Below are positions 1 through 31,975 of a stretch of 64,000 nt of DNA, one piece after another (position 1 is the stretch's first letter; each line of letters begins with the position of its first letter). Source of the stretch: Eledone cirrhosa (taxonomy: Eukaryota); NCBI GenBank assembly GCA_964016885.1, contig OZ024745.1, forward strand, positions 64,108,001 through 64,172,000. The letters are read 5' to 3'. The notes under the pieces were generated by a model, which saw only the letters and a program-made list of their open reading frames with translations, did not search any database and was not told the origin of the DNA. The translations under genes were made by a program, and so were the position numbers.

Positions 1-1152
1 GGTGTGGCCACCTCCATATTATATGGTGGGTTAAACCAACAAATGCGACGGGATCTATTTCTTCTAGGTCTATTTTCGTACTCTGTATAAGCTACTTTAT
101 CAACAAATCCACTTCGAGCAAGAGCTTCATTGTAATAAGTGGAATGGTCGTTGAAAATGCGCTCGTTGGTGGAAAGACGGGAAAGCCTCAACGAAACGTT
201 TTTTACCAGGTTCTTGGTTATGCTGGCAGGATGGTTGGAATGCTTACTTATGTAATTAAGCGTATCATTCGGCTTTCTATACGGGTAATACAACCCATTC
301 AATAAATTGAGGGTAACGTCGAGGTAATTAACGACCGAGAGATTGGCCTCAACCTGTATAGAGAGGTTGAAGCCTTTAAAGAAGGCTGTGAGTTCTTTTC
401 TGAACCTGTCACAAGCACGAGGTCCGCACTTAGTCATGGTCAAGAGACCATCGTCACGGTACAAACCACCGCCCGCGTTGGGGAATTCGTCCTTGATAGA
501 GAAAAGAAGGAAAAGGCCAATAAGATCAGTAACCGCCGCAGAGTCACTGGCGCCCATACTCACGTCGAATGGGGTGCTATTGGATTTTTTAATCCAAATA
601 GAGTCGTCGAAATTAATCACCGACTTTCGGGCATTAAGGATGACATCAACTTCGAAATCCTTAACCACTGTGAGTGTTTTAGCGAAATTGATAGCTCTAA
701 GGAGAAGTGGTAAAGTGATGGAGGAGTAGTAATTGTTGATGTCGAATTGGATAAAACGGCAATGTTCCTTGTTACATATGCCGTTGAACCAATCAATCAC
801 CGCGAAGGAATTGTTCCACAGTGCGAGAGGGGCCAAACTTCTAATTTCAGGTATAATTCTATCAAGAATAGTTTTACTAAGTCTACCTAAATCGGACTTC
901 GTAGGGTTAATAAGCCGAATAGAGGGGTTGTTCGGAAAATTGGATTTGTGATCCTTCAGGGTAAAGTGGGGAGAGATAGGGTCCAGAGGTTCGGTCCGGT
1001 CCAGGATGTTGAGATCAGATGTGATTTTAAACCCAGCATCGTTGATTTCATTGATGACACACCGATTAGTTTTACGGTAATCCTTAGTTACAGCATTATG
1101 TAGTAGTTGATGGTAAGTACTGCGCTCCACTTGATATAGGTTGCCAGTTTTT
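1..1152 (-). mobile_element. Penelope-like retroelement A: reverse transcriptase ORF, 5'-truncated, runs off the left edge
   Basis: Manual minus-strand translation is stop-free for about 384 codons: KTGNLYQV..HFTLKDHKSNFPNNPSIRLINPTKSDLGRLSK..FIQFDINNYYSSIT..FDVSMGASDSA..GGLYRDDGL..NYLDVTLNL..YRKPND..SNHP..RRICWFNPPYN. It is absent from the ORF track, probably because it has no stop inside the window. Confidence 0.9.
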
Positions 1153-1292
1153 ATGGAATGGACGTGCACGATTCTTTGCTTAAACTTTAATCTGTTATTT
1201 TAATAAATATTTGCTCTACGGTTTTTATATATTTGATATATATTTTCCTTATCGAGCCCTCTTTGGATTTTAGTCTTCAATTTTATTATTAT

Positions 1293-1295
<3 letters not shown>

Positions 1296-1385
<90 letters not shown>

Positions 1386-1387
1386 TA

Positions 1388-1445
<58 letters not shown>

Positions 1446-1458
1446 ATTATATATATAT
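1296..1458. repeat. (TA)n microsatellite between two PLEs
   Basis: About 160 nt of nearly pure TA repeat. Confidence 0.97.
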
Positions 1459-1546
1459 AATAAAAAATTGAACAGGGACAGAACAGAGAGGCAGTACGAC
1501 AAATGTTTATTAGATTCACGCTCAGGAGAGTGGGGGGTATGTGGAG

Positions 1547-1579
1547 GACGACGTTTCGGGCATAAGCCCTTCTTCAGGT
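1547..1579 (-). ncRNA. Minimal type-I hammerhead ribozyme-like motif in PLE pLTR
   Basis: Minus strand reads ac-CTGAAGA-A-GGGC-TTAT-GCCC-GAAA-CGTC-gtc: CUGAnGA and GAAA core boxes, 4-bp stem II, palindromic ACGT before a GUC site; stem I is only about 2 bp. Confidence 0.75.
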
Positions 1580-2916
1580 AAGAGTTCAAAAGGTGTGTAG
1601 GGGAGTGGTGGAGAGACATATAGCGAAAGGAAACGGTGCGAAAAATTAACAAATAAAGACAAAAATATAATAAATAATAAATAAAAATAAAGCATGATCA
1701 AAATACAAGGAATGAGAACATTTAAAAATAAAGGCATGATCAAAATAAACTGAAATTAAAAGGGGGGTAAACAGGTGGTGGAAGGATGTGGGGTGAGTAG
1801 AGGTGGAGGCGGGTGGAGTGGGGAGAGGGAGACGGGGTGTCCGAGCGAGGAGGGCTGAAGGTGGTGTGTGTGGTTAGGTGTGCGTGTGTGTGTGTGTGTG
1901 TGTAAGTGAAAGTGAGGGTTGGGGGAAGAACGGGGTTGCATGTTCAGGAAGGTGTGTGTGGGGGGTGTTTTTGTGTGTCGGAGGGTCTGTGCGTGTGTGG
2001 ATAGGGGGTGGGGGGAGAGGAATCAGGGGGCTGAGGGTGTAAATATGTGGTGGGAAGCACGTGTGTGTGGTTTAAGCGTGTTGTGGGTGTGGGTGGCATG
2101 TGGATAAAAAAATTTGTTTTGGGATGTGTGTGTGGGTGAGTTATATAGGTGATGGTGTTAGAGGATGGTTGAAAAGTGGTAAGTTACACGGATGTATGGA
2201 GATTTTGGTTGGAAGTCAAAACGCGTGTAGGTAATCCAAGAAGCGGTGGTCGGAAGAGGAGAGATGTGGGGTGCGCGCGCAACAGGAAGTGGTCAGCAGT
2301 GGGAGTGCTGTGGTCAGTGGGTGCTGAGACAGTGGTCGGAAGGTCATAGCAGCAGTCAGCGGAATGGTAGGGAGGCGAGGATGGGTAGGTGTGAGAGTTG
2401 GAGTGAGGAGGGTGTGTGTGTGTGTGTGTGTGTGTGTATTAGTAGGGGTGTTAGTGGGATGAGTGAGTGTGGAGTGGGGAGAGAAGGGTGTGTGTGGTTC
2501 TATGGAGGGAGTGTGGTGTACTGGTGTGTGTGTAGTTTGGTGAGGAGGTGTTAGTGGGTGTTAGTAGACGGGAGGTGGGGAGGGGTGGAATGCAGGTGTG
2601 AGTGGGGGTTAGTGGGGGTAGGGTGTGTAGAGTTGGTGGTGTACGAGGGTGTGTGGGTACGTGTGCGTGGGGTTGGAGGGTGTTAGTGATGTTAGTTGCG
2701 TGTGGGGTGGGTGGTGTAAGTGTGTGCGTGTGATAAGGAGGGGGGAGGAGGAGAAGAGGGGAGGGAAGGGATGTTAGTATGTTAGTTGGGGAAGGGTGGT
2801 TAGATGAGGGGTGGAGTGGGGGGTGTTAGTATTGTTAGTGTGGGGTGGGCGGTGAAAAGGAGGGGTGTGTTAGTGGTGTTAGTGGGGGATAAGTGGGGGA
2901 GGGGGGCGGTCGAAGG

Positions 2917-4769
2917 CTAAAGGAATAAGGGTGGGGAGTTCAGGCCGGGGGGGAGGGTCTGTAAGATGAAGATAGTACGTTGTTCGACCGTGAGGCGATG
3001 GGCGGGTGTTCCGTGGCACTGGAGTAGGCCACAGACTGTGAGATGGTGTGCGGAGTGTCCAGGGCCACCAAAGTGGCGGGCGATGGGGGAACTGCCCCCG
3101 AGACGAATGTCCCGGAGGTGCTCCGTGACTCGGTCCGCCAGGCGGCGTCCCGTCTGTCCGACATAAGTCGCGCTGCACCTCGTGCAACGAAGTCCGTAGA
3201 CTAGGTTGGAGGAGGTGCAGCGGAAGGCATGCCGGACCGAGAGAGGGTGGCCGTTGGGACCCTGGAAGGTGGTGGTGTTGGTGATGTGGGGACAGGTGTT
3301 GCAGCGGGGCCTAGAACATGGAAACGAACCGGGGGGGGAGCGTGGGTTGGGGGGTAGGGAGCTGTGGACGAGGAGGGTGCGGAGATTGCGTGCGCGTATG
3401 AAGGAGGGGAGTGGTGGGGTTGGGAAGATGTGGGAGGTGGAGGGGTCGGACTGGAGGTGTCGGAAGAGGCGGCGGATGGTGCGGTGGAGGGGTAAGGTGG
3501 AGGGGTGGTAGGTGATGGGGAAGGGGAGACGGTGGGTGGGTGTGCGGTGGCGTGGGGTGAGGGTGGTAGAGCGGGGGATAGCACGGGCGCGGGTGAGAGC
3601 GGTGTGGACGAGAGAGGGGGGGGGGGGGTAACCTCTGCGGATGAAATGGCTGATTAGGGAAAGGGCTTGGGACTCGAAGTCAGCATCTCGGCTACAGAGG
3701 CGGCGGATCCTGAGAAGTTGGGAGTAGGGAATGGAGAGTTTAGTGTGGGTGGGGTGGGAAGAGGTGAAGTCGAGGTAAGAGTGGGAGTCGGTGGGTTTGA
3801 AGAAGGCGGAGGTGACGAGGGAGTGGTGGGAGGGGTCGAAGGCGACGGAGATGTCCAAGAAGTGGACGTGGGTGGTGGAGATAGAGGTGGTGAAGTGGAG
3901 GGAGGGGTGGAAGGAGCAGAAGAAGGAGAGAAAGGAGTCGAGCTGTACTCGGGTGAGGGTCGTGGCTCCGATACAGTCGTCAATGTAACGACCGTACAGT
4001 TCGGGCGTGGGGCCGGTGTACTGGGCAAAGATTTGGGCCTCAACATGGCCAACAAAAAGGTTGGCATAGTTCGGGCCCATTCTTGTGCCCATGGCTACCC
4101 CCGTGACCTGTTGGTAAAACTCACCCGAGAAGGAGAAACAATTTAGGGTGAGGACCAGCTCGGCGAGGCGAAGGAGGGTGGGGGTGGAGGGAATGGGGGA
4201 GGGGCGAAGGTCGAGGTAGTGTTTGAGGGCGCGAAGGCCGTCGGCGTGGGGGATGACGGTGTAGAGGGACTTGATGTCTAGGGTGAAGAGGAATGGCTGA
4301 GGGCCGGGTAGGTAGGTGAAGGAGTCGAAAAGGCGCAGGGCGTGGTTGGTGTCAGAGATGTGGGAGGGGAGGGTGGTGACAAGGGGGGCGAGGAGGGAGT
4401 CGAGAAAGGCGGAGATGAGTTCGGTGGGGCAGTTGCAAGCGGAGACGATGGGACGGCCGGGGTTGTCGGGTTTGTGGAGTTTGGGGAGGAAGTAGATGGT
4501 GGGGGTGCGGGGTGTGCGGACGATGAGGTGGGAAGCGGTGGGGGGGGGAGGGAGGAGGCGATGAGGTCTTTGATGGTGGAGGAGACTTGTTGTTGGTAGA
4601 GGGGGGTGGGATCGGAGGGTAGAGGGCGGTAAAAGAGGGGGTTACAGAGCTGCCTGAGGGCTTCGGCCTTGTAGAGGTCCGCGCGCCATACCACCACGGC
4701 GCCTCTCTTGTCCGCCGGTTTGATGACGATGTCATCTCGGCTACGGAGGGAGCGGAGAGCGAGGAGTTC
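2917..4769 (-). CDS. PLE RT / GIY-YIG endonuclease (about 617 aa; one frameshift in the G-run 4540-4548)
   Basis: IVIKPADKRGAVVVW, YFLPKLHKPDNPGRPIVS, TLDIKSLYTVIP, GVAMGTRMGPNYAN, RYIDDC, FLDISV, FFKPTD, SSHP, linker CSRPRCNTC, endonuclease FRCTSSNLVYGLRCTRCSATYVGQTGRRLADRVTEH..GLN. Confidence 0.9.
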
Positions 4770-4920
4770 ATATATATATATACTATTCAGTTTTGTATTT
4801 GTTTCTGAAACTGCTTTCGTAATTTTAATTTTGTTTTAAGTACAAAAATTATCAAATAAAAAAATAAATAAATGAACAAAAACCGTATTGATAAAAAATA
4901 AACGGTACAAAAAATATAAA

Positions 4921-7345
4921 CAAGGACGCCACACACTCCACCCTCAGGTACCCCATATCCTCCACCCTCGAGGCCAGCCCCAAGCATTTGCGTGACCAGG
5001 TAAACACAAAGCTTATCATGGGTGATGTCTCGGCCGCTGTCAGAGTTATTGCCTCATAGGACACTGTCCTCCACCCACGGAGGAGGTCCTGGGTGCTATG
5101 CGATTCAAACACCTGAACCACACACTGATCTCAGACCCATACCCCCACCCGACCCCCACTTGCTTCTTGTGGCTTCTGATGCAGACATCATGTCCGCCAC
5201 CAGGCCCTTCCCAGGACCTAGCAGCTGCGGAGGTGTTGATGGTCTCCGACCAGACTACCTCAAAGAGTTGACATCCCCTCTCTCCGCTGTGGCCGGGCGT
5301 CGCCTTCTGAGTGCAATTGTGGCGCTCACCAATAGGCTCATCCATGGTGCCCTGGACCTTTACGCACGAGGCCTCTTTTTTTCGGCCAACCTCACCGCTT
5401 TCAGGAAGAAAGAGGGTGGCATACGCCCCATCGTTGTTGGCAATGTCTTCCAGAAGGTGGCTGCCAAGGTAATCTGCAAGTCCGTGACACACGAACTGGG
5501 TGAGGAGTTTAGTCCGGTGCAACTGGGTGTCGGCGTGTTCGGTGGCTGTGAGGGCGCCGCTCAGGCAACCAGGCAGTTCTTCAGCAGCTGCCCATTGGTA
5601 CCGGCATCCAGGGACTCCAGCAACCTCATAGTCAAGCTTGACATGAGGAATGCCTTCAACTCTTTACGCCGGGACCATCTGCTCGAGGCCTGCGTCAGCC
5701 GAGCTCCCTCTGCCTACCTGTCATATGGAGCCCCGAGCCTGCTCCTTGCTGCTGATACGGTCATACCCTCGGCTACTGGAGTCCAACATGGTGACCCTTT
5801 GGGACCCCTCCTGTTCGCCCTTGGTATTGACCACATCGACCGGAGTATCACGGCCCCTCTCAACGTTTGGTATCTGGATGATGCTACGTTGGGCGGGCCC
5901 GTACGGACGGTCTGCCATGCCCTTCAATCGGTGGTTCCTGCCCTGGCGGGAATCGGCCTCCAGGTCAACTCGGCCAAGTCGGAGGTGGTGAATGTCAGAC
6001 TTGATGCTGTGAGCTTTGCAGCCTCCAACTTGGACGTGCGGTCCATTCTCCTCCAGATTCAGGTGACCTCCAAAGAGGATGTCCTCATCCTCAGGTCACC
6101 GATCCACCCGCCGGCCATCCGATCCCCCATCAGCTCCAGGCTTCAAGAGCTCCAGACTCTCACGAACCGACTGGGCTTGATTGACGGCCACCCAGCTCTC
6201 TTTCTGCTGAGGAACTGCTTCGCCATGCCGAAGCTCCTCCATACACTCCGCAGCGCTCCGTGCTACACCCAGACATCTCTCCTCGCTGACCTCGATACTT
6301 GTATCCAAACAGCAGCCGAGGAGATATGCAACGTCAAGTTTGACGACATAGCGTGGCAACAGGCCACTTTACCTGTCAGGTATGGAGGCCTTGGCCTCCG
6401 GTCCCTGATCTCACTAGCTTTGCCGGCGTATCTTTCGTCGGTAACTTCGTGCCGCGTCCTCGACAGCAGGGTTCTTCAAAACACAACAGAACCCTCTGTG
6501 TTTAGAGAATGTGAGGCCGCCTGTGAGACGTGGGACCGGCGGGGACTTAGCCCAGTAGACGTCCCTCCTCCTTCTTCCCTTGTTGACGTCAAGTCCCCCC
6601 CCCCATGCACTTGGGATGCCATCCTGTGCAGCCTGGCCTCAGACAGGCTCACGCGCCAGCTCGACCAGCACCGCCTTGCTTGTTTTCGTGCGGCCTCCAA
6701 ACCCCACAGTGGTGCCTGGCTCCATGCCCTACCCTCCTTCTCCACTGGCACGTAGCTAGACAACCATAGCCTGCGCATCGGTGTTTCCCTGAGGCTCGGC
6801 CTCCGGATCTGCCAGCCACACCAATGTCGCTGCGGTTCCACCGTGGACTCTTTCGGCCTCCACCCGCTTTCCTGTCGCTACAGTGTCGGCCGCCTTCCAC
6901 GCTATGTTGCCCTCACCGAGGTCATTAAGCATGGCTTGGACGCTGTAGGCTTCCCTTCCCAGCGCGAGCCGGTGGGACTGGATCGAGGAGACGGCAAAAG
7001 GCCAGATGGCATGACCATCTTCCCGTTCCGCGGTGGCAAACTCCTTGTCTGGGATGCCACTTGCAGCCGTAACCTGGTGCAGTCTGCGACTGACCCAGTT
7101 TCTGCTGCACGTCTGGCTGAGGGGGCCAAACTCCTCAAATACCGGTCGCTCTCCGACGGTTTGCGGTCGTACCCCTGGCAGTGGAGACTTTTGGTGTCCT
7201 CGGCCCCAGGGCTATATCTTTACTCACCACCATAGGAGCTGAGCCCCGCGAGTTGGAGTGGCTTCTCCAGCGCGCCTTCCCCCGAGGAAACGCCTCCATT
7301 CTGTCCGCCGGGGCTGTGGGTGGGCCCCATCGCGTACCGTTGTAG
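4921..7345 (+). mobile_element. CRE-clade non-LTR retrotransposon (RT + CCHC knuckle + restriction-like endonuclease), decayed and 5'-truncated
   Basis: KLIMGDVSAAVR, GGVDGLRPDYLK, KKEGGIRPIVVG, QLGVGVFGGCE, KLDMRNAFNS, GVQHGDPLGPLLF, WYLDD, LPVRYGGLGLRS, SGAWL, CRC..H..SC, REP..RPDG..WDATC; in-frame TAG stops at 5057-5059 and 6753-6755 plus frameshifts near both ends. Confidence 0.88.
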
Positions 7346-7699
7346 TTGTTTTATACAGATGTTCAACAATATTCACAACATCGGTGACATTAATAGTTAC
7401 CTAATGTGATAGAGTTGACAATTAATTACTTCTGATGAATATATCGATCATCTTTTACATATAAACACTTGAAGATGTAAAACATTCTATCAAGTAATAA
7501 AATGTAATTTTATTTGTAATAAATACTATTTTTACATGCTTGCACTTCAATAAGTTCATTTCATATAAATTAGAAATACCAAGTAAAGGAGAGAAAAATC
7601 GAATGATAAAAGAGTTAAAAAATATCTGCTAATCTTTGAAGAATTATTAATCGAGCTCGACAAGTGGAAAGTTGAAATAAAAAAAAAATCTTTTTTGCT

Positions 7700-7730
7700 G
7701 GAATGTGAAGGAGTCACGTGACTGCATTCC
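7700..7730. promoter_or_regulatory. Palindromic E-box GTCACGTGAC (7713-7722) upstream of the putative first exon
   Basis: ggaatg..AGTCACGTGACT..cattcc; 12-bp perfect palindrome about 600 bp upstream of the candidate exon 1. Confidence 0.35.
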
Positions 7731-7839
7731 AAAGAAAGTTGAATCGAAAATTCTTTTGGTCATTTTATAAATTAAATTTAACATCTGAAAACACACATAC
7801 ATACACATATTTATAAAGACATACATTTACTCTCCCTTT

Positions 7840-7977
<138 letters not shown>

Positions 7978-8299
7978 TCGAATCGAAATCAATTTCGTTT
8001 CATATGACACTATTATTTTTATCTTAAATACAAATGAAAAGTATAAACATAATAGTATATATCTAAGTAATCAAGAATAGTCATTCTTGTATAGACTTAT
8101 AAAATAATACCTATATAAATTTGCAGTTTTAAAAATATATTGCTGTTTTGTTTTATTTTAAACAAGAAAAATGTAAATTGGAAGTAAAATGCAATTTCTT
8201 CGTGTATTTCGTTTCGTTTTATTTCATGTTAACGTTTTTTATTTACTAAAAACAGAATGCCGAGTATAATAGCAAGAACTAGTGTAATTAAGTATTATC

Positions 8300-8431
8300 G
8301 CACCTTTCGTTTTTCAGCTACCCACCCACTGCTGTGACGGTGTGTCGTCAACTCTTCATTTGTTTATGAGTTAGACACTTATAACACTTTACCCCTGTCT
8401 TGTCTCTTATTTTCCTGTGTTTAGCTACCAG
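8300..8431 (+). other. CTNNA: Probable non-coding first exon (5' UTR) of alpha-catenin; start position uncertain
   Basis: Consensus donor CCAG|GTAAGT at 8431/8432 in non-repetitive, CpG-containing sequence. The first coding exon has an acceptor only 23 nt before its ATG, so an upstream exon is expected. Confidence 0.5.
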
Positions 8432-9429
8432 GTAAGTAAAATATATTCTTATGTCGCGCGCGCCTGTTTGTTTATATGTCTATATATACATATACTATTA
8501 TGTTAAACAAAAATTTGTTTACTATTTTAAACCATAATATAGTAACCTGTCGAATAATTATATGACATATGTATACATTTAATGTATATTTTAAATATTC
8601 TATCGGCTTTTTCCTTGTATATTTTCTTTATAGTCGTATTTATGTAGAAAGGGTGGTTTGTTTTTAAGCAGTCTATCATTCCCTTCTCGGTGGTTAGTAA
8701 GGGAGTCTTTACAGTTGGTGGACATGTCACCGTATAGAAGCCAAATTCCCATTATTTCCAGCAGACCCTTGAGTTAATTAGGAAAAAAAAGGGAAAAACA
8801 TTTTTTAGCTATAAAGTATAATTGCTTGAAGTGTTAGAAATCAATACTTTTGTAACCAATACTACCGATGAAAGAAGGCACCCTAAAATTGATTAAAAAC
8901 AAATTTAATGTTTTCATATAGCCTATTTATTATTTCATATAGTTCCATGTTAGTTTAGACTGACACGTTTCCCTTACGATTTTATATACTGACAGGGTTG
9001 TATGTGAATTAATTTTTAATCTACACAGTCGTATTACAGTGGTTCTTTTTTAATGGCCTAGAAGAAAAACAAATTTATTGTCAGAAGTGTTAGACAAACT
9101 ACTCAAAGCCACGGTTTTCGATAGTAAACCTCAAACATTTATATACAACTGATAAAGTAATTTAAAGAAACTGTTTCATTCTTTAGATGACCATACTGAA
9201 TGACTCCCTTGGTTGTTTCAATGAAGTGTTTTTACACTACTTATGTAGTTGATTGTTACTTTTGTGTTCAAATCCAGCTGAAGTCAACTTTGCCTTCACC
9301 CTCCTTTGGATCAGGAAAACAAAGTATGAGTCGAATACTGGCGTCGATTTCGGTTTCTATGATATACCCTATATATGAATGGAATTATAATAGTGTAAGA
9401 CTAAATTCATTGCCAAAACGAGTGTGCCA

Positions 9430-9612
9430 CTTGGTCATTTGACTCGTTAGAAATAACAACCCAATCTTCCTTAAATCACACTATACTACTTAAAACAAAA
9501 GAAACATTGGTTAATGTAGGACGCTATATAAAAAAAACCCCAGGATAGTCACGGCTGGAATGCTTTTGATCATAGGTCTACTCGATCATGGTTGACCTGG
9601 GGCTAAATAATA
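9430..9612 (+). mobile_element. Abundant SINE-like interspersed repeat (family C), representative copy
   Basis: agaaatagcagccaaatc..ggtcacggctggaatgcctttgatcataggtc..gttgacctggggctaaa recurs near 12260, 14430, 14840, 15115(-), 15995(-), 17945(-), 18310, 20530(-), 29975(-), 46610 and 57940. Confidence 0.75.
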
Positions 9613-10739
9613 ATGACAGAAGCAACTTCGTTGTTCTTTATGAATTTTTGTTCACCTGTTCATGAGTAACTAATATATTTGTAATCATTACACAAAAAAA
9701 CTCATTCACCTGTATGTATGTTACCAGAAATAGCATATTTTGTTTGGTGCTAAGGTATACAGTTTATATGCAATAAGTACGTTAAGTACTTAGCTCCGTC
9801 AACTGACCTGTTTATGTATTTTCTTGGCACTGCTTATTCTACCTTGTTGACACAACCTATATATATATCATATATATATATATATATATATATTCTTACA
9901 TTATGCTATATTCAAATATTTATTCAGGTTGGGTCTGATAGTAGTAATAGTAATATTAATAATTTCTTTATTAATCACAAAGGGTATACGTTAAGTAAAT
10001 AATAATAATAACTGATGTTGAAATGGCAAATTTTAATCGACCCCAGTGAATAGCTGGTATTCATTTTCACGATAATATACAAATTAAAACAAAACATTTG
10101 TGTGCTCTAAATAACTTTATTCAAGTCATTTTATCTCACTTTCAGTTTATTTATTCCTTCATTTTGTTTGTGTTACCATTAATCACATCTCAAATAATGT
10201 CACATTGGTATGGACGGTAGCCACAGGTTAGTAGTCACTCTTCTTAAATGATAATTTTCAAAATAAGTATTCTAAATTACTTCCGCGATCTCAACCGTTA
10301 CTTTGGTTAGAAGAATGTCGACCTTCACCTTGCACAAACGTTGACAGGTCGTCGTATCGTTTACCTGTCTGAGTCATCATTTATGAATTTTTATGTAGAC
10401 AATACATCGGAAAAACAAATGCGCATATATAGGACTTAGAAACACTCCTTTCTCATTTGTGACATTTTATAGAAACCAGGTATTATTAGTCAGTAAATTA
10501 TCAACATTAAACTCAGGTGATATCATAACTTCACTATATGTCCTGTTTGTCTATATATCGATTGGTGTGTTAATGTCTGTCAGCCTGTCCTTCGGCCGGT
10601 CGGTGTATACCTCTTTGTCAGTCGGTCTATATCGCTCGGTCTGTTTTAGGTCAGTAGCAATCAAACTTTAGGTGATATTACACCGTCTCTATATATCTCT
10701 ATTATTGGTTGGTATATTCATAGTTGGTCTATCTATTGG

Positions 10740-11560
10740 GGAGTTGTAGGCAAAAAGAATGAGCAGTGGCAACGATCTTTTACAGACCCTTCTATGTTGG
10801 TGAGATTGGCATGCTTGATTTTCAGTTTCATTATCTAAGTTTATGCTTACAGAAAAGTATGATGAGAGGAAATGCCAGAGAATGGTCTACCTAAGGAGGA
10901 GGTATTTTGACTTGAGGTTAGTGTTGTGACTAGGACAGGAGTGGCAAAACAGCAGGGGCTATGAGACAGGAGAGATTTGTGGACATGGATTAAATTGGTG
11001 AGCAACTTGTCAGTTCAGTGGTAAAGGTTAGTGTTGTAATAACAGAACAAGAATTAAATAACAGTGCATCTGCAAGCTATACATTGTTGTATATTGATAT
11101 GCGAGTCTGTTAATCAGCCCATGACTTTCTTTTGGAGGCACTTTAGAGTATTTGTGTATATAGCAGTAGTACTATTTCATGTGTAGGAGCAGTAGTTTAT
11201 TGCCATAAGCTTTGTAGAGAATTAGTTGATGGTAATTGCAATGCTAGTTTTAGCTATTTTATTGTTGACTTTGAGACATTTCTGAGTTGTCCAGGACTGG
11301 GAATGGTGAGATGCAAGATTATATAGTAATTGTTATTGTTCTTTTGAGACTACATAGTCATACCCCATTAGAGCAATGATGAACTACGTTCAGGGGAAAT
11401 GTTGGTAGTCTGTGTTTTATGTTATGTTACAATATTTTTATATTTAGTGGTCCATGATGTTCGCCTTGTGTATTTTCTGGGAAATGTAAGGAAAAATGTT
11501 GTCTATCAGTATTTTAGAGGATATCTGTGAGGTTTCTCTTTATGGGGCTTTATGGATTTC
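10740..11560 (-). mobile_element. Highly degenerate LINE-like fragment
   Basis: GC-richer, coding-like texture broken by many stops; family not assignable by eye. Confidence 0.25.
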
Positions 11561-11702
11561 AAATGACATATCTAGCTTGCCTGTTGATGACATCAGTTAT
11601 ATTACATGTCACTCTTGCTACCTATCTAGCATGTCTGTCCATATCTATCTATTGGTTGGTCATGATTTGATAGCAACATCTACATACTTGATAGCTTCTT
11701 AA

Positions 11703-12055
11703 CCCCTAAGTTATCAACCTATTAAATAAAACCAACTGTTTTAAAGGTTTCCAATTTAAATAAAAATCTTCCAACATAATTTTATACAAGAACCTTACAT
11801 TAAGTTACTATCTTAATAATGAAATTGACCATCATCACCATTTAACGTCCATTTTCCACACTAGCATGGGTTAGATGGGTGGACCTATTTAAGGCAAGTT
11901 GAGGTTGAATGACCATGTCTTGCTCACACAGAACTGATTTTGGCTTGGTTTCTATGGCTGGATGCCCTAATAAATAATTTTAGTAAAGACCTTAAAATTC
12001 TTCATTTATTAATTAAAATAGAGAGTATTTCATTGGAAGTGTGATTATGAAAGGG
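11703..12055. mobile_element. piggyBac-like MITE (TTAA|CCC...GGG|TTAA) interrupted by a SINE tail (11828-11970); related partial copy at about 12545-12715
   Basis: ttaa-cccc at 11699 and aaggg-ttaa ending 12059; internal segments are shared with 12545-12718. Confidence 0.6.
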
Positions 12056-31389: not shown

Positions 31390-31975
31390 TGAGGCTTCCT
31401 TACGGCTGGATGGTTAGTCTCTGTGGTATGAGGCTTACCTACGGCTGGTTAGTTAGTCTCTGTGGTATGAGGCTTACCAACTGCTGGTTAGTTAGTCTCT
31501 GTGGTATGAGGCTTGCTTACGGCTGGTTGGTTAGTCTCTGTGGTATGAGGCTTACCTACGGCTGGTTAGTTAGTCTCTATGGTACGAGGCTTGCCTGCGG
31601 CTGGTTGGTTAGTCTCTGTGGTACGAGGCTTACCTACGGCTGGTTAGTTAGTCTCTGTGGTACGAGGCTTACCTACGCTGGTTAGTTAGTCTCTGTGGTA
31701 CAAGGCTTACCTACGGCTGGTTGTTTAGTCTCTGTGGTACAAGGCTTACCTACGGCTGGTTGTTTAGTCTCTGTGGTACAAGGCTTACCTACGGCTGGTT
31801 GTTTAGTCTCTGTGGTACAAGGCTTACCTACGGCTGGTTGTTTAGTCTCTGTGGTACAAGGCTTACCTACGGCTGGTTAGTTAGTCTCTGGTACGAGGCT
31901 TACCTACGGCTGGCTGGTTCGTTAGTCTCTGTGGTATGAGGCTTGCCTACGGCTGGTTGGTTAGTATCTGCGGGG
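31390..31975. repeat. 39-bp minisatellite (about 15 units) with decayed flanking units (about 31290-32350)
   Basis: Unit AGTCTCTGTGGTAYRAGGCTTACCTACGGCTGGTT(AG/GT)TT. Confidence 0.95.

Follow-up and report, generated by a model that had tools for sequence, protein, structure and literature searches.

An apparently selected array of ACUAAY doublets, likely sites for a host STAR protein, in the 3′ UTR of a Neptune-type PLE

A Neptune-type Penelope-like element (PLE) within the window (the whole 64-kb stretch of DNA analysed) carries, just downstream of its stop codon, an array of ACUAAY doublets apparently under purifying selection in the master lineage, with about a quarter as many inherited substitutions as the remaining UTR. 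The constraint on the motifs is similar to that on first and second codon positions, and an ACUAAY array is also present in two ancient related families whose UTRs cannot be aligned with it. The array is a real and selected cis-element, lineage-restricted and not Neptune-wide. Judged from the sequence, the doublets are likely binding sites for a host STAR protein of the QKI/GLD-1 type, which would help the element RNA.

The element and its ACUAAY array

The element lies on the minus strand and is 5′-truncated; its ORF contains a frameshift near 4640 and its 5′ end abuts a (TA)n tract at about 4750. The ORF matches RVT_1 with E=1.4e-4 and full-length RT-GIY-YIG proteins at 54-56%, and full-length copies of the family can be aligned from residue 1 with a 904-aa relative. 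The Neptune features found were an RT plus, in the same ORF, a GIY-YIG endonuclease at the C-terminal end, a zinc-finger-like RT-EN linker of the CX2-5CxxC type (here CX4CxxC), and a pseudo-LTR with a hammerhead motif whose core boxes were recognised by pattern. The linker is described as common to Neptune and Nematis (PMC8557442), and the minimal hammerhead type of PLEs is described in PMC4209133. Stem II of the hammerhead is predicted to fold, and an Rfam scan of positions 1-12000 gave no hammerhead, only microsatellite-like miRNA matches. The antisense of the hammerhead core (1571-1583, plus strand) reads as a consensus 5′ splice site (CAG/GTAAG), which is probably a coincidence. The features, in window coordinates, are as follows.

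2917..4740, minus strand: Neptune-type PLE ORF, 5′-truncated, with RT, CX4CxxC linker and GIY-YIG endonuclease
2917-4641, minus strand: open frame of this ORF, with a TAG stop at 2917-2919
2430..2916, minus strand: stop-proximal 3′ UTR, 54% C and 2.5% G, predicted single-stranded
2869..2883, minus strand: doublet 1, ACUAAC-3 nt-ACUAAC, starting 34 nt after the stop
2825..2839, minus strand: doublet 2, ACUAAC-3 nt-ACUAAC
2773..2786, minus strand: doublet 3, ACUAAC-2 nt-ACUAAC; spacer 3 nt in older subfamilies
2682..2696, minus strand: doublet 4, ACUAAC-3 nt-ACUAAC; first site of the corresponding pair ACUAAU in older subfamilies
2598..2613, minus strand: doublet 5, ACUAAC-4 nt-ACUCAC; the intact site of the pair is not the same in all subfamilies
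2550..2565, minus strand: doublet 6, ACUAAC-4 nt-ACUAAC
2438..2455, minus strand: doublet 7, ACUAAC-6 nt-ACUAAU, the ACTAAT at 2438-2443 pairing with the site at 2450
2273..2291, strand not assigned: CAGGAAGTG box, which we take to be ETS-like, beside a GC dinucleotide run; candidate internal promoter, the box itself at 2283-2291
1470..2265, minus strand: stretch of the 3′ UTR that recurs as the 5′ pseudo-LTR of the full-length copies L168, L171 and L170 (reaching 2265, 2079 and 2018)
1547..1577, minus strand: candidate minimal hammerhead core boxes (CUGANGA, stem II, GAAAC-GUC), found by pattern, 1340 nt after the stop
1296..1470, strand not assigned: target microsatellite (TA)n adjoining the element's 3′ end, which lies near 1470

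A genome search for the UTR/ORF junction gave 2327 first-look candidates, and the 40 of these that were scored showed 97-100% identity; the family is a young, high-copy Neptune-type element. Two further retroelements lie in the window. A second, unrelated PLE (3-1199, minus strand; also at L031) has an RT plus a GIY-YIG-like C-terminal part that continues left of the window, and its U/G-rich 3′ UTR has no ACUAAY cluster. Positions 5004-7235 (plus strand) hold the broken RT of a non-LTR retrotransposon, which matches RVT_1 with E=2e-12 and has a Cys/His motif at its C-terminal end; it presumably comes from an RLE-type element.

The twelve minus-strand ACTAAC sites listed by the first-pass annotation are all present (starts 2450, 2550, 2560, 2608, 2682, 2691, 2773, 2781, 2825, 2834, 2869 and 2878), and the array indeed begins about 35 nt after the stop, the first site lying 34 nt beyond the TAG. 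That annotation had grouped the sites into five pairs 8-10 nt apart, missing a thirteenth ACUAAY (2438-2443) and an ACTCAC (2598-2603). With these, the UTR contains 13 ACUAAY motifs (12 ACUAAC and one ACUAAU), 34-479 nt after the stop, and seven doublets, namely six ACUAAY pairs and one ACUAAC/ACUCAC pair, with start-to-start spacings of 9, 9, 8, 9, 10, 10 and 12 nt. All are in the sense orientation (13 sense, 0 antisense). The surroundings are C-rich (54% C) and non-tandem, as had been described, with no tandem repeat called between 2540 and 2900, and the predicted MFE of the 487-nt proximal UTR (-1.6 kcal/mol) equals that of shuffles.

The position of the array within the transcript bears on the earlier suggestion of a role in circularisation, whereby STAR dimers would loop the RNA ends together and aid circle formation after hammerhead cleavage. 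PLE hammerheads, and circular RNAs of related retrozymes, have been described (10.64898/2026.07.22.740005, PMC4209133). In L168, L170 and L171, though, the 5′ pseudo-LTR copies no more of the UTR than its final 550-800 nt, which lack the cluster, and no ACUAAY occurs between the 5′ hammerhead and the ORF start; the cluster therefore lies inside the hammerhead-to-hammerhead RNA, on one side only. Nor is there any ACUAAY in the 860 nt before the 3′ hammerhead, from which the cluster is 860-1300 nt away. With sites on one side only, looping of the ends is extremely improbable, and this part of the earlier proposal is not supported.

The enrichment that the first-pass annotation had expected over composition-matched shuffles was found. 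Twelve ACTAAC occur in the 1437-nt UTR against 1.20 in dinucleotide shuffles, and twelve in the 487-nt proximal UTR against 3.43 in trinucleotide shuffles, with 0/2000 shuffles reaching 12 in either case. When 4-mers are preserved, 9.6 are expected in the proximal UTR and 40/2000 shuffles reach the observed number, which only shows that nearly every TAA of the proximal UTR lies in the motif. The whole window has a small ACTAAC excess (58 against 41.7; 2/100 shuffles), including an unrelated 39-bp minisatellite at 31391-31970 with overlapping ACTAAC on the minus strand, which supplies about 20 of the 58 matches and has no relation to the PLE.

Genome-wide, a two-doublet pattern search gave 3968 matches compared with 83 for the reversed control. 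ACTAAC-NNN-ACTAAC is common in the genome's triplet minisatellites, and most rows among the matches listed fall there, without PLE homology; since doublets arise easily in such repeats, shuffles are a weak null for origin. Twenty of 24 listed places were fetched, and these comprised six simple repeats and 14 Neptune 3′ UTRs, the latter all with the motifs on the sense strand and four of them from the families X and Y described below.

Some of the triplet-derived minisatellites extend over multiple kilobases (G000:C1:195595857-195615000, L300-L302; also C1 at about 340.63 Mb, L304, 273.2 Mb, L310, and 1.55 Mb, L270) and carry ACTAAY sites by the hundred on a single strand (one 10-kb stretch has 496). 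A PLE origin for the large ACTAAC arrays (C1 at about 195.6 Mb and others) was considered and set aside as they have no PLE homology, and they were treated as simple repeats. Transcription of the ACTAAY strand, if it occurs, would make them very large sponges for QKI/SF1, comparable to Gomafu.

The occurrence of the same doublet in large triplet minisatellites raises the possibility of a neutral by-product, in which doublets come from degenerate ACT/AAC/ACC/AAT triplet repeats multiplied by duplication and by slippage in reverse transcription, and their apparent conservation comes from alignment anchoring or slow mutation. The commonest spacings, 9 and 12, fit this, as do duplications and deletions between doublets in copies L039, L052, L176 and L317; against it, spacings of 8, 10 and 13 are also fixed, and spacers differ between doublets while the hexamers stay.

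Conservation within the family and among Neptune relatives

Near-identical copies keep 12-13 motifs in 30/30 cases, which says little because family copies are 97-99% identical. Older subfamilies (83-90% identity at the ORF end) are more informative: they keep the doublets, with variation in the spacers and flanks and with ACUAAU at some sites. The alignment covered the final 300 nt of the ORF and the proximal UTR in 81 of the 143 loci matching the ORF end, leaving out duplicates of one locus, 3′-truncated loci and loci with an incomplete anchor. Inherited substitutions were counted as parsimony changes on internal branches, which reflect replicating masters. Among the 81 copies these amount to 0.108 per column at motif positions 1-5 (65 columns) against 0.454 in the other UTR columns (346 columns, non-CpG and non-run), and to 0.125, 0.095 and 0.422 at codon positions 1, 2 and 3, respectively. 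Columns with an inherited change number 6/65 in motifs and 112/346 in the UTR (Fisher p=8e-5), and the ratio of internal to terminal changes also differs between motif and UTR (p=0.026).

Changes on terminal branches are also lower in motifs (0.57 against 0.93 per column), in the same ratio as at codon positions 1/2 against 3. Singletons in 34 young copies number six in motifs against about 8.6 expected from the base-specific rates of the UTR, too few to exclude a mutational cold spot. Exact 5-mer retention between the window copy and 16 old copies is 142/175 (81%) for ACTAA, compared with 312/1069 (29%) for control 5-mers and 923/1950 (47%) for the ORF; with old copies as reference it is 87-98% for ACTAA against 31-48% for controls, the ORF ranging from 42 to 50% overall, with the caveat that repeated motifs can anchor alignments and inflate retention. 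An alignment-free count gives 6-15 ACUAAY per old copy (16 copies) where about one is expected. In four other sequencing runs, positions 2440-3700 matched short contig pieces, and in 2/4 runs UTR pieces near the window family were found, too similar or shallow for a test of divergence. No non-autonomous derivative with the cluster but without the ORF was evident among 30 loci found by their hammerhead end.

Two further families, X and Y, came to light by way of the motif pattern, so that their enrichment is ascertained, and thus biased, at the family level. For each, 19 copies were collected in addition to the query locus; their main matches are 67-78% alike (88% in one short match), with 41-61% aa identity to the C-terminal part of the window PLE. 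Sense ACUAAY motifs in the 19 copies number 129 in X and 97 in Y (22 expected in Y), with 11 and 1 antisense, respectively; per copy, ACTAA occurs 6.9 and 5.7 times against 1.8 and 1.6. Position 6 is C or U in 129/132 (X) and 97/108 (Y) sites, and spacings are mainly 8, 9 and 13. The UTRs of X and Y are related to each other, and profiles of either gave no significant match to the window family UTR (best E 0.25). ACTAA is the top 5-mer, of 1024, common to the three families; their flanking bases differ, and the unit kept is therefore the hexamer. A hammerhead pattern search in X and Y found none.

In a FastTree tree of degraded C-terminal pieces, restricted to genome and metagenome loci with at least 90 aligned residues, the window family, X and Y group together with local support 0.955, and a sister family and the metagenome elements stand apart from this group. 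Protein searches of the same genome with two distant relatives returned only the window family and that sister family, which (5 copies, 53-57% aa in the C-terminal part) has 0-2 motifs and no cluster. The metagenome relatives with at least 200 nt after the stop (30 of 80 loci) likewise have no cluster in 30/30, with at most two motifs in the first 500 nt, and ACTAA ranks 840 of 1024 in their UTRs. The conservation in related elements anticipated by the first-pass annotation is thus partly borne out: the motifs are constrained in the master lineage and recur in the ancient families X and Y, and they are absent from the sister family and the metagenome relatives.

These data weigh on the neutral explanation, since the motifs are conserved to the same degree as codon positions 1 and 2, old copies hold 6-15 of them in an alignment-free count, and the hexamer is kept in the AT-rich context of family X. 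Already weakened, a neutral by-product is very unlikely.

Several structures at the DNA level were also observed. In family X (e.g. L318, L321, L327 and L334) the 3′ UTR contains a conserved 16-bp AT-rich palindrome with one sense and one antisense ACTAAT, perhaps an RNA hairpin or else a DNA site of homeodomain type, and 12/20 of its loci (L318-L337) have an ETS-like box with a GC dinucleotide run after the cluster. GC dinucleotide runs are also the top words in the UTRs of metagenome Neptune elements. Several copies of the window family have their 5′ ends at 2225-2265, just downstream of the ETS-like box, possibly marking transcription start or RT stop.

The motifs might accordingly be DNA sites for a transcription factor, forming an upstream enhancer 150-600 bp before the ETS-like box; when units are arranged in tandem or with a pseudo-LTR, the promoter region of each unit is supplied by the 3′ UTR of the preceding one. 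The box at 2283-2291 and its counterpart in family X, the 5′ ends just downstream of it, and, in family X, the top words TAATT/CTAAT and the TAAT-rich palindrome with its antisense site, which looks like a DNA site, speak for such an enhancer. The strict sense polarity (13/0, 129/11 and 97/1) speaks against it, although the G-poor composition itself disfavours the antisense form, and the cluster is missing from the 5′ pseudo-LTR in the three pLTR-ORF-pLTR copies examined. Moreover, we know of no animal transcription factor with the consensus ACTAAY, and we consider a DNA enhancer unlikely.

Candidate host reader and proposed role

The QKI consensus consists of a NACUAAY core with a UAAY neighbour (PMC2697983, PMC4735526), and tandem ACUAAC 9 nt apart form a high-affinity QKI site in RAI14 (PMC11483029). 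In the window, 12/13 motifs have a UAAY neighbour within 20 nt, and a UAAY half-site or second core lies within 1-20 nt of 119/152 old-copy sites, 100/129 sites in X and 74/96 in Y. The window array thus presents the NACUAAY core, the UAAY half-site and a predicted single-stranded context of a Quaking response element, and the host has a STAR gene: QUA1 and KH exons lie 42 kb apart on the same strand of contig C9, with Quaking and GLD-1 as best structural matches. From these exons, the host genome is predicted to encode a QKI/GLD-1-type STAR gene; a separate Sam68/T-STAR-type KH exon is also present. The doublet spacers of 2-6 nt are mostly under the optimum of GLD-1, which tolerates 0 to 12 nt with an optimum of 6-12 and binds about 2.5- to 5-fold more weakly at 2-4 nt (PMC2905418).

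A second class of reader would be SF1, or the motifs could act on splicing, either as decoy branch points holding SF1 or as branch points blocked by QKI, which would prevent cryptic splicing in the element RNA or in host introns where it has inserted. ACUAAC is the branch-point core, the SF1 site being UACUAAC, and the first 394 nt after the stop contain no AG. The base directly before the core is U in only 4/13 window sites, though (38/152 in old copies, 53/129 in X and 19/96 in Y), and the array does not therefore have the UACUAAC form of SF1 and Gomafu sites. The first AG lies about 27 nt beyond doublet 6, at 395 nt from the stop; the tract following the motifs is C/A-rich, not U-rich, and none of the 30 genomic loci found by their hammerhead end is spliced or begins at this AG. 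Gomafu repeats do bind SF1 (PMC3116199) and tandem ACUAAC represses splicing (PMC11483029), whereas the pairing of sites suits a dimeric protein; a splicing role, or SF1 as reader, has little probability.

CUAAC resembles a telomerase template. Telomere priming via CUAAC was considered and is not supported, the A before the core being fixed; no 3′-truncated copy viewed by eye ran into telomere repeats.

The motifs have been kept about as strictly as protein code while their surroundings changed, and the element therefore likely recruits a host RNA-binding protein. On the basis of the motif and its pairing, it is quite probable that STAR dimers bind the element RNA. The doublets may have had their origin in simple triplet repeats, been multiplied by internal duplication and then been retained. 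Coating the stop-proximal UTR, host STAR dimers would stabilise or route the element's RNA, whose UTR measures 1.3 kb and whose end would be ribozyme-cut, allowing it to survive and to reach the ribosome and the replication step; the analogy here is with the PTBP1 element just behind the stop in Rous sarcoma virus (PMC4764554). As selection has to work on replicating masters, it probably does so in the germ line or early embryo. More tentatively, the effect may be stabilisation and export, or translational timing, of the RNA in the germ line. Published work credits QKI isoforms with control over export, stability, translation and cytoplasmic polyadenylation (PMC9786888), and on the DENV4 3′ UTR the effect of QKI is restrictive rather than helpful (PMC5959249). 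That STAR proteins might protect against nonsense-mediated decay would be an analogy only, with no instance in the literature consulted.

A bolder and rather doubtful extension is that one lineage of telomerase-related retroelements has domesticated the host germ-line STAR (QKI/GLD-1) circuit. The array would then replace the poly(A)-based protection lacking in ribozyme-cut or circular RNA and set the timing of germ-line translation; it would have been rebuilt and kept through complete UTR turnover and have helped this lineage reach thousands of copies.

Comparison with known systems

To our knowledge, almost nothing is known of host factors of PLEs or of the stability, export and translation of their hammerhead-cut RNAs, and the motif, non-coding yet constrained to the degree of a protein, points to one specific candidate host factor. 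Among the papers listed by searches of the open literature, none was on STAR or ACUAAY sites in UTRs of PLEs or other retrotransposons. If the proposal is true, this would be the first STAR-protein module in a retrotransposon, as far as the literature searched reaches, and the thousands of inserted copies would, in addition, scatter strong QKI sites across the introns and UTRs of the host.

The element shares with the Neptune clade of EN+ PLEs the RT with C-terminal GIY-YIG, the CX2-5CxxC linker, the pseudo-LTR, the minimal hammerhead and (TA)n insertion (PMC8557442, PMC4209133), and differs in its 1.3-kb C-rich 3′ UTR with a selected array of ACUAAY doublets. Metagenome Neptune relatives mostly have about 85-210 nt from stop to hammerhead and no array, a link between UTR length and cluster that spans three groups only. 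In the literature consulted, the SECIS of Naiads is the only PLE 3′ UTR cis-element met with.

The Quaking response element, NACUAAY-N(1-20)-UAAY, is known from the MBP 3′ UTR and RAI14 intron 10 (PMC2697983, PMC11483029, PMC10636886). The hexamer, its C/U freedom, the 9 nt tandem spacing of RAI14 and the single-stranded context (predicted here) are the same, whereas here seven doublets of putative sites lie in one UTR, of a selfish element and not a host gene. The tandem UACUAAC repeats of the Gomafu/MIAT lncRNA are similar in that a motif array survives while the surrounding RNA diverges between lineages (PMC3116199); Gomafu/MIAT, however, is a non-coding nuclear host RNA binding SF1, and the window PLE is a coding retroelement with mostly no U before the core.

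Two viral systems offer further parallels. The RNA stability element that PTBP1 binds in Rous sarcoma virus (PMC4764554) likewise has sites, putative in our case, just after the stop in a reverse-transcribing element with a long 3′ UTR, but with another protein and another motif. The QRE of dengue virus 4 (PMC5959249) resembles the putative sites here as a QKI target within a parasitic RNA's 3′ UTR; it is a single site that lowers viral translation, whereas the window PLE has many sites kept by the element's own selection.
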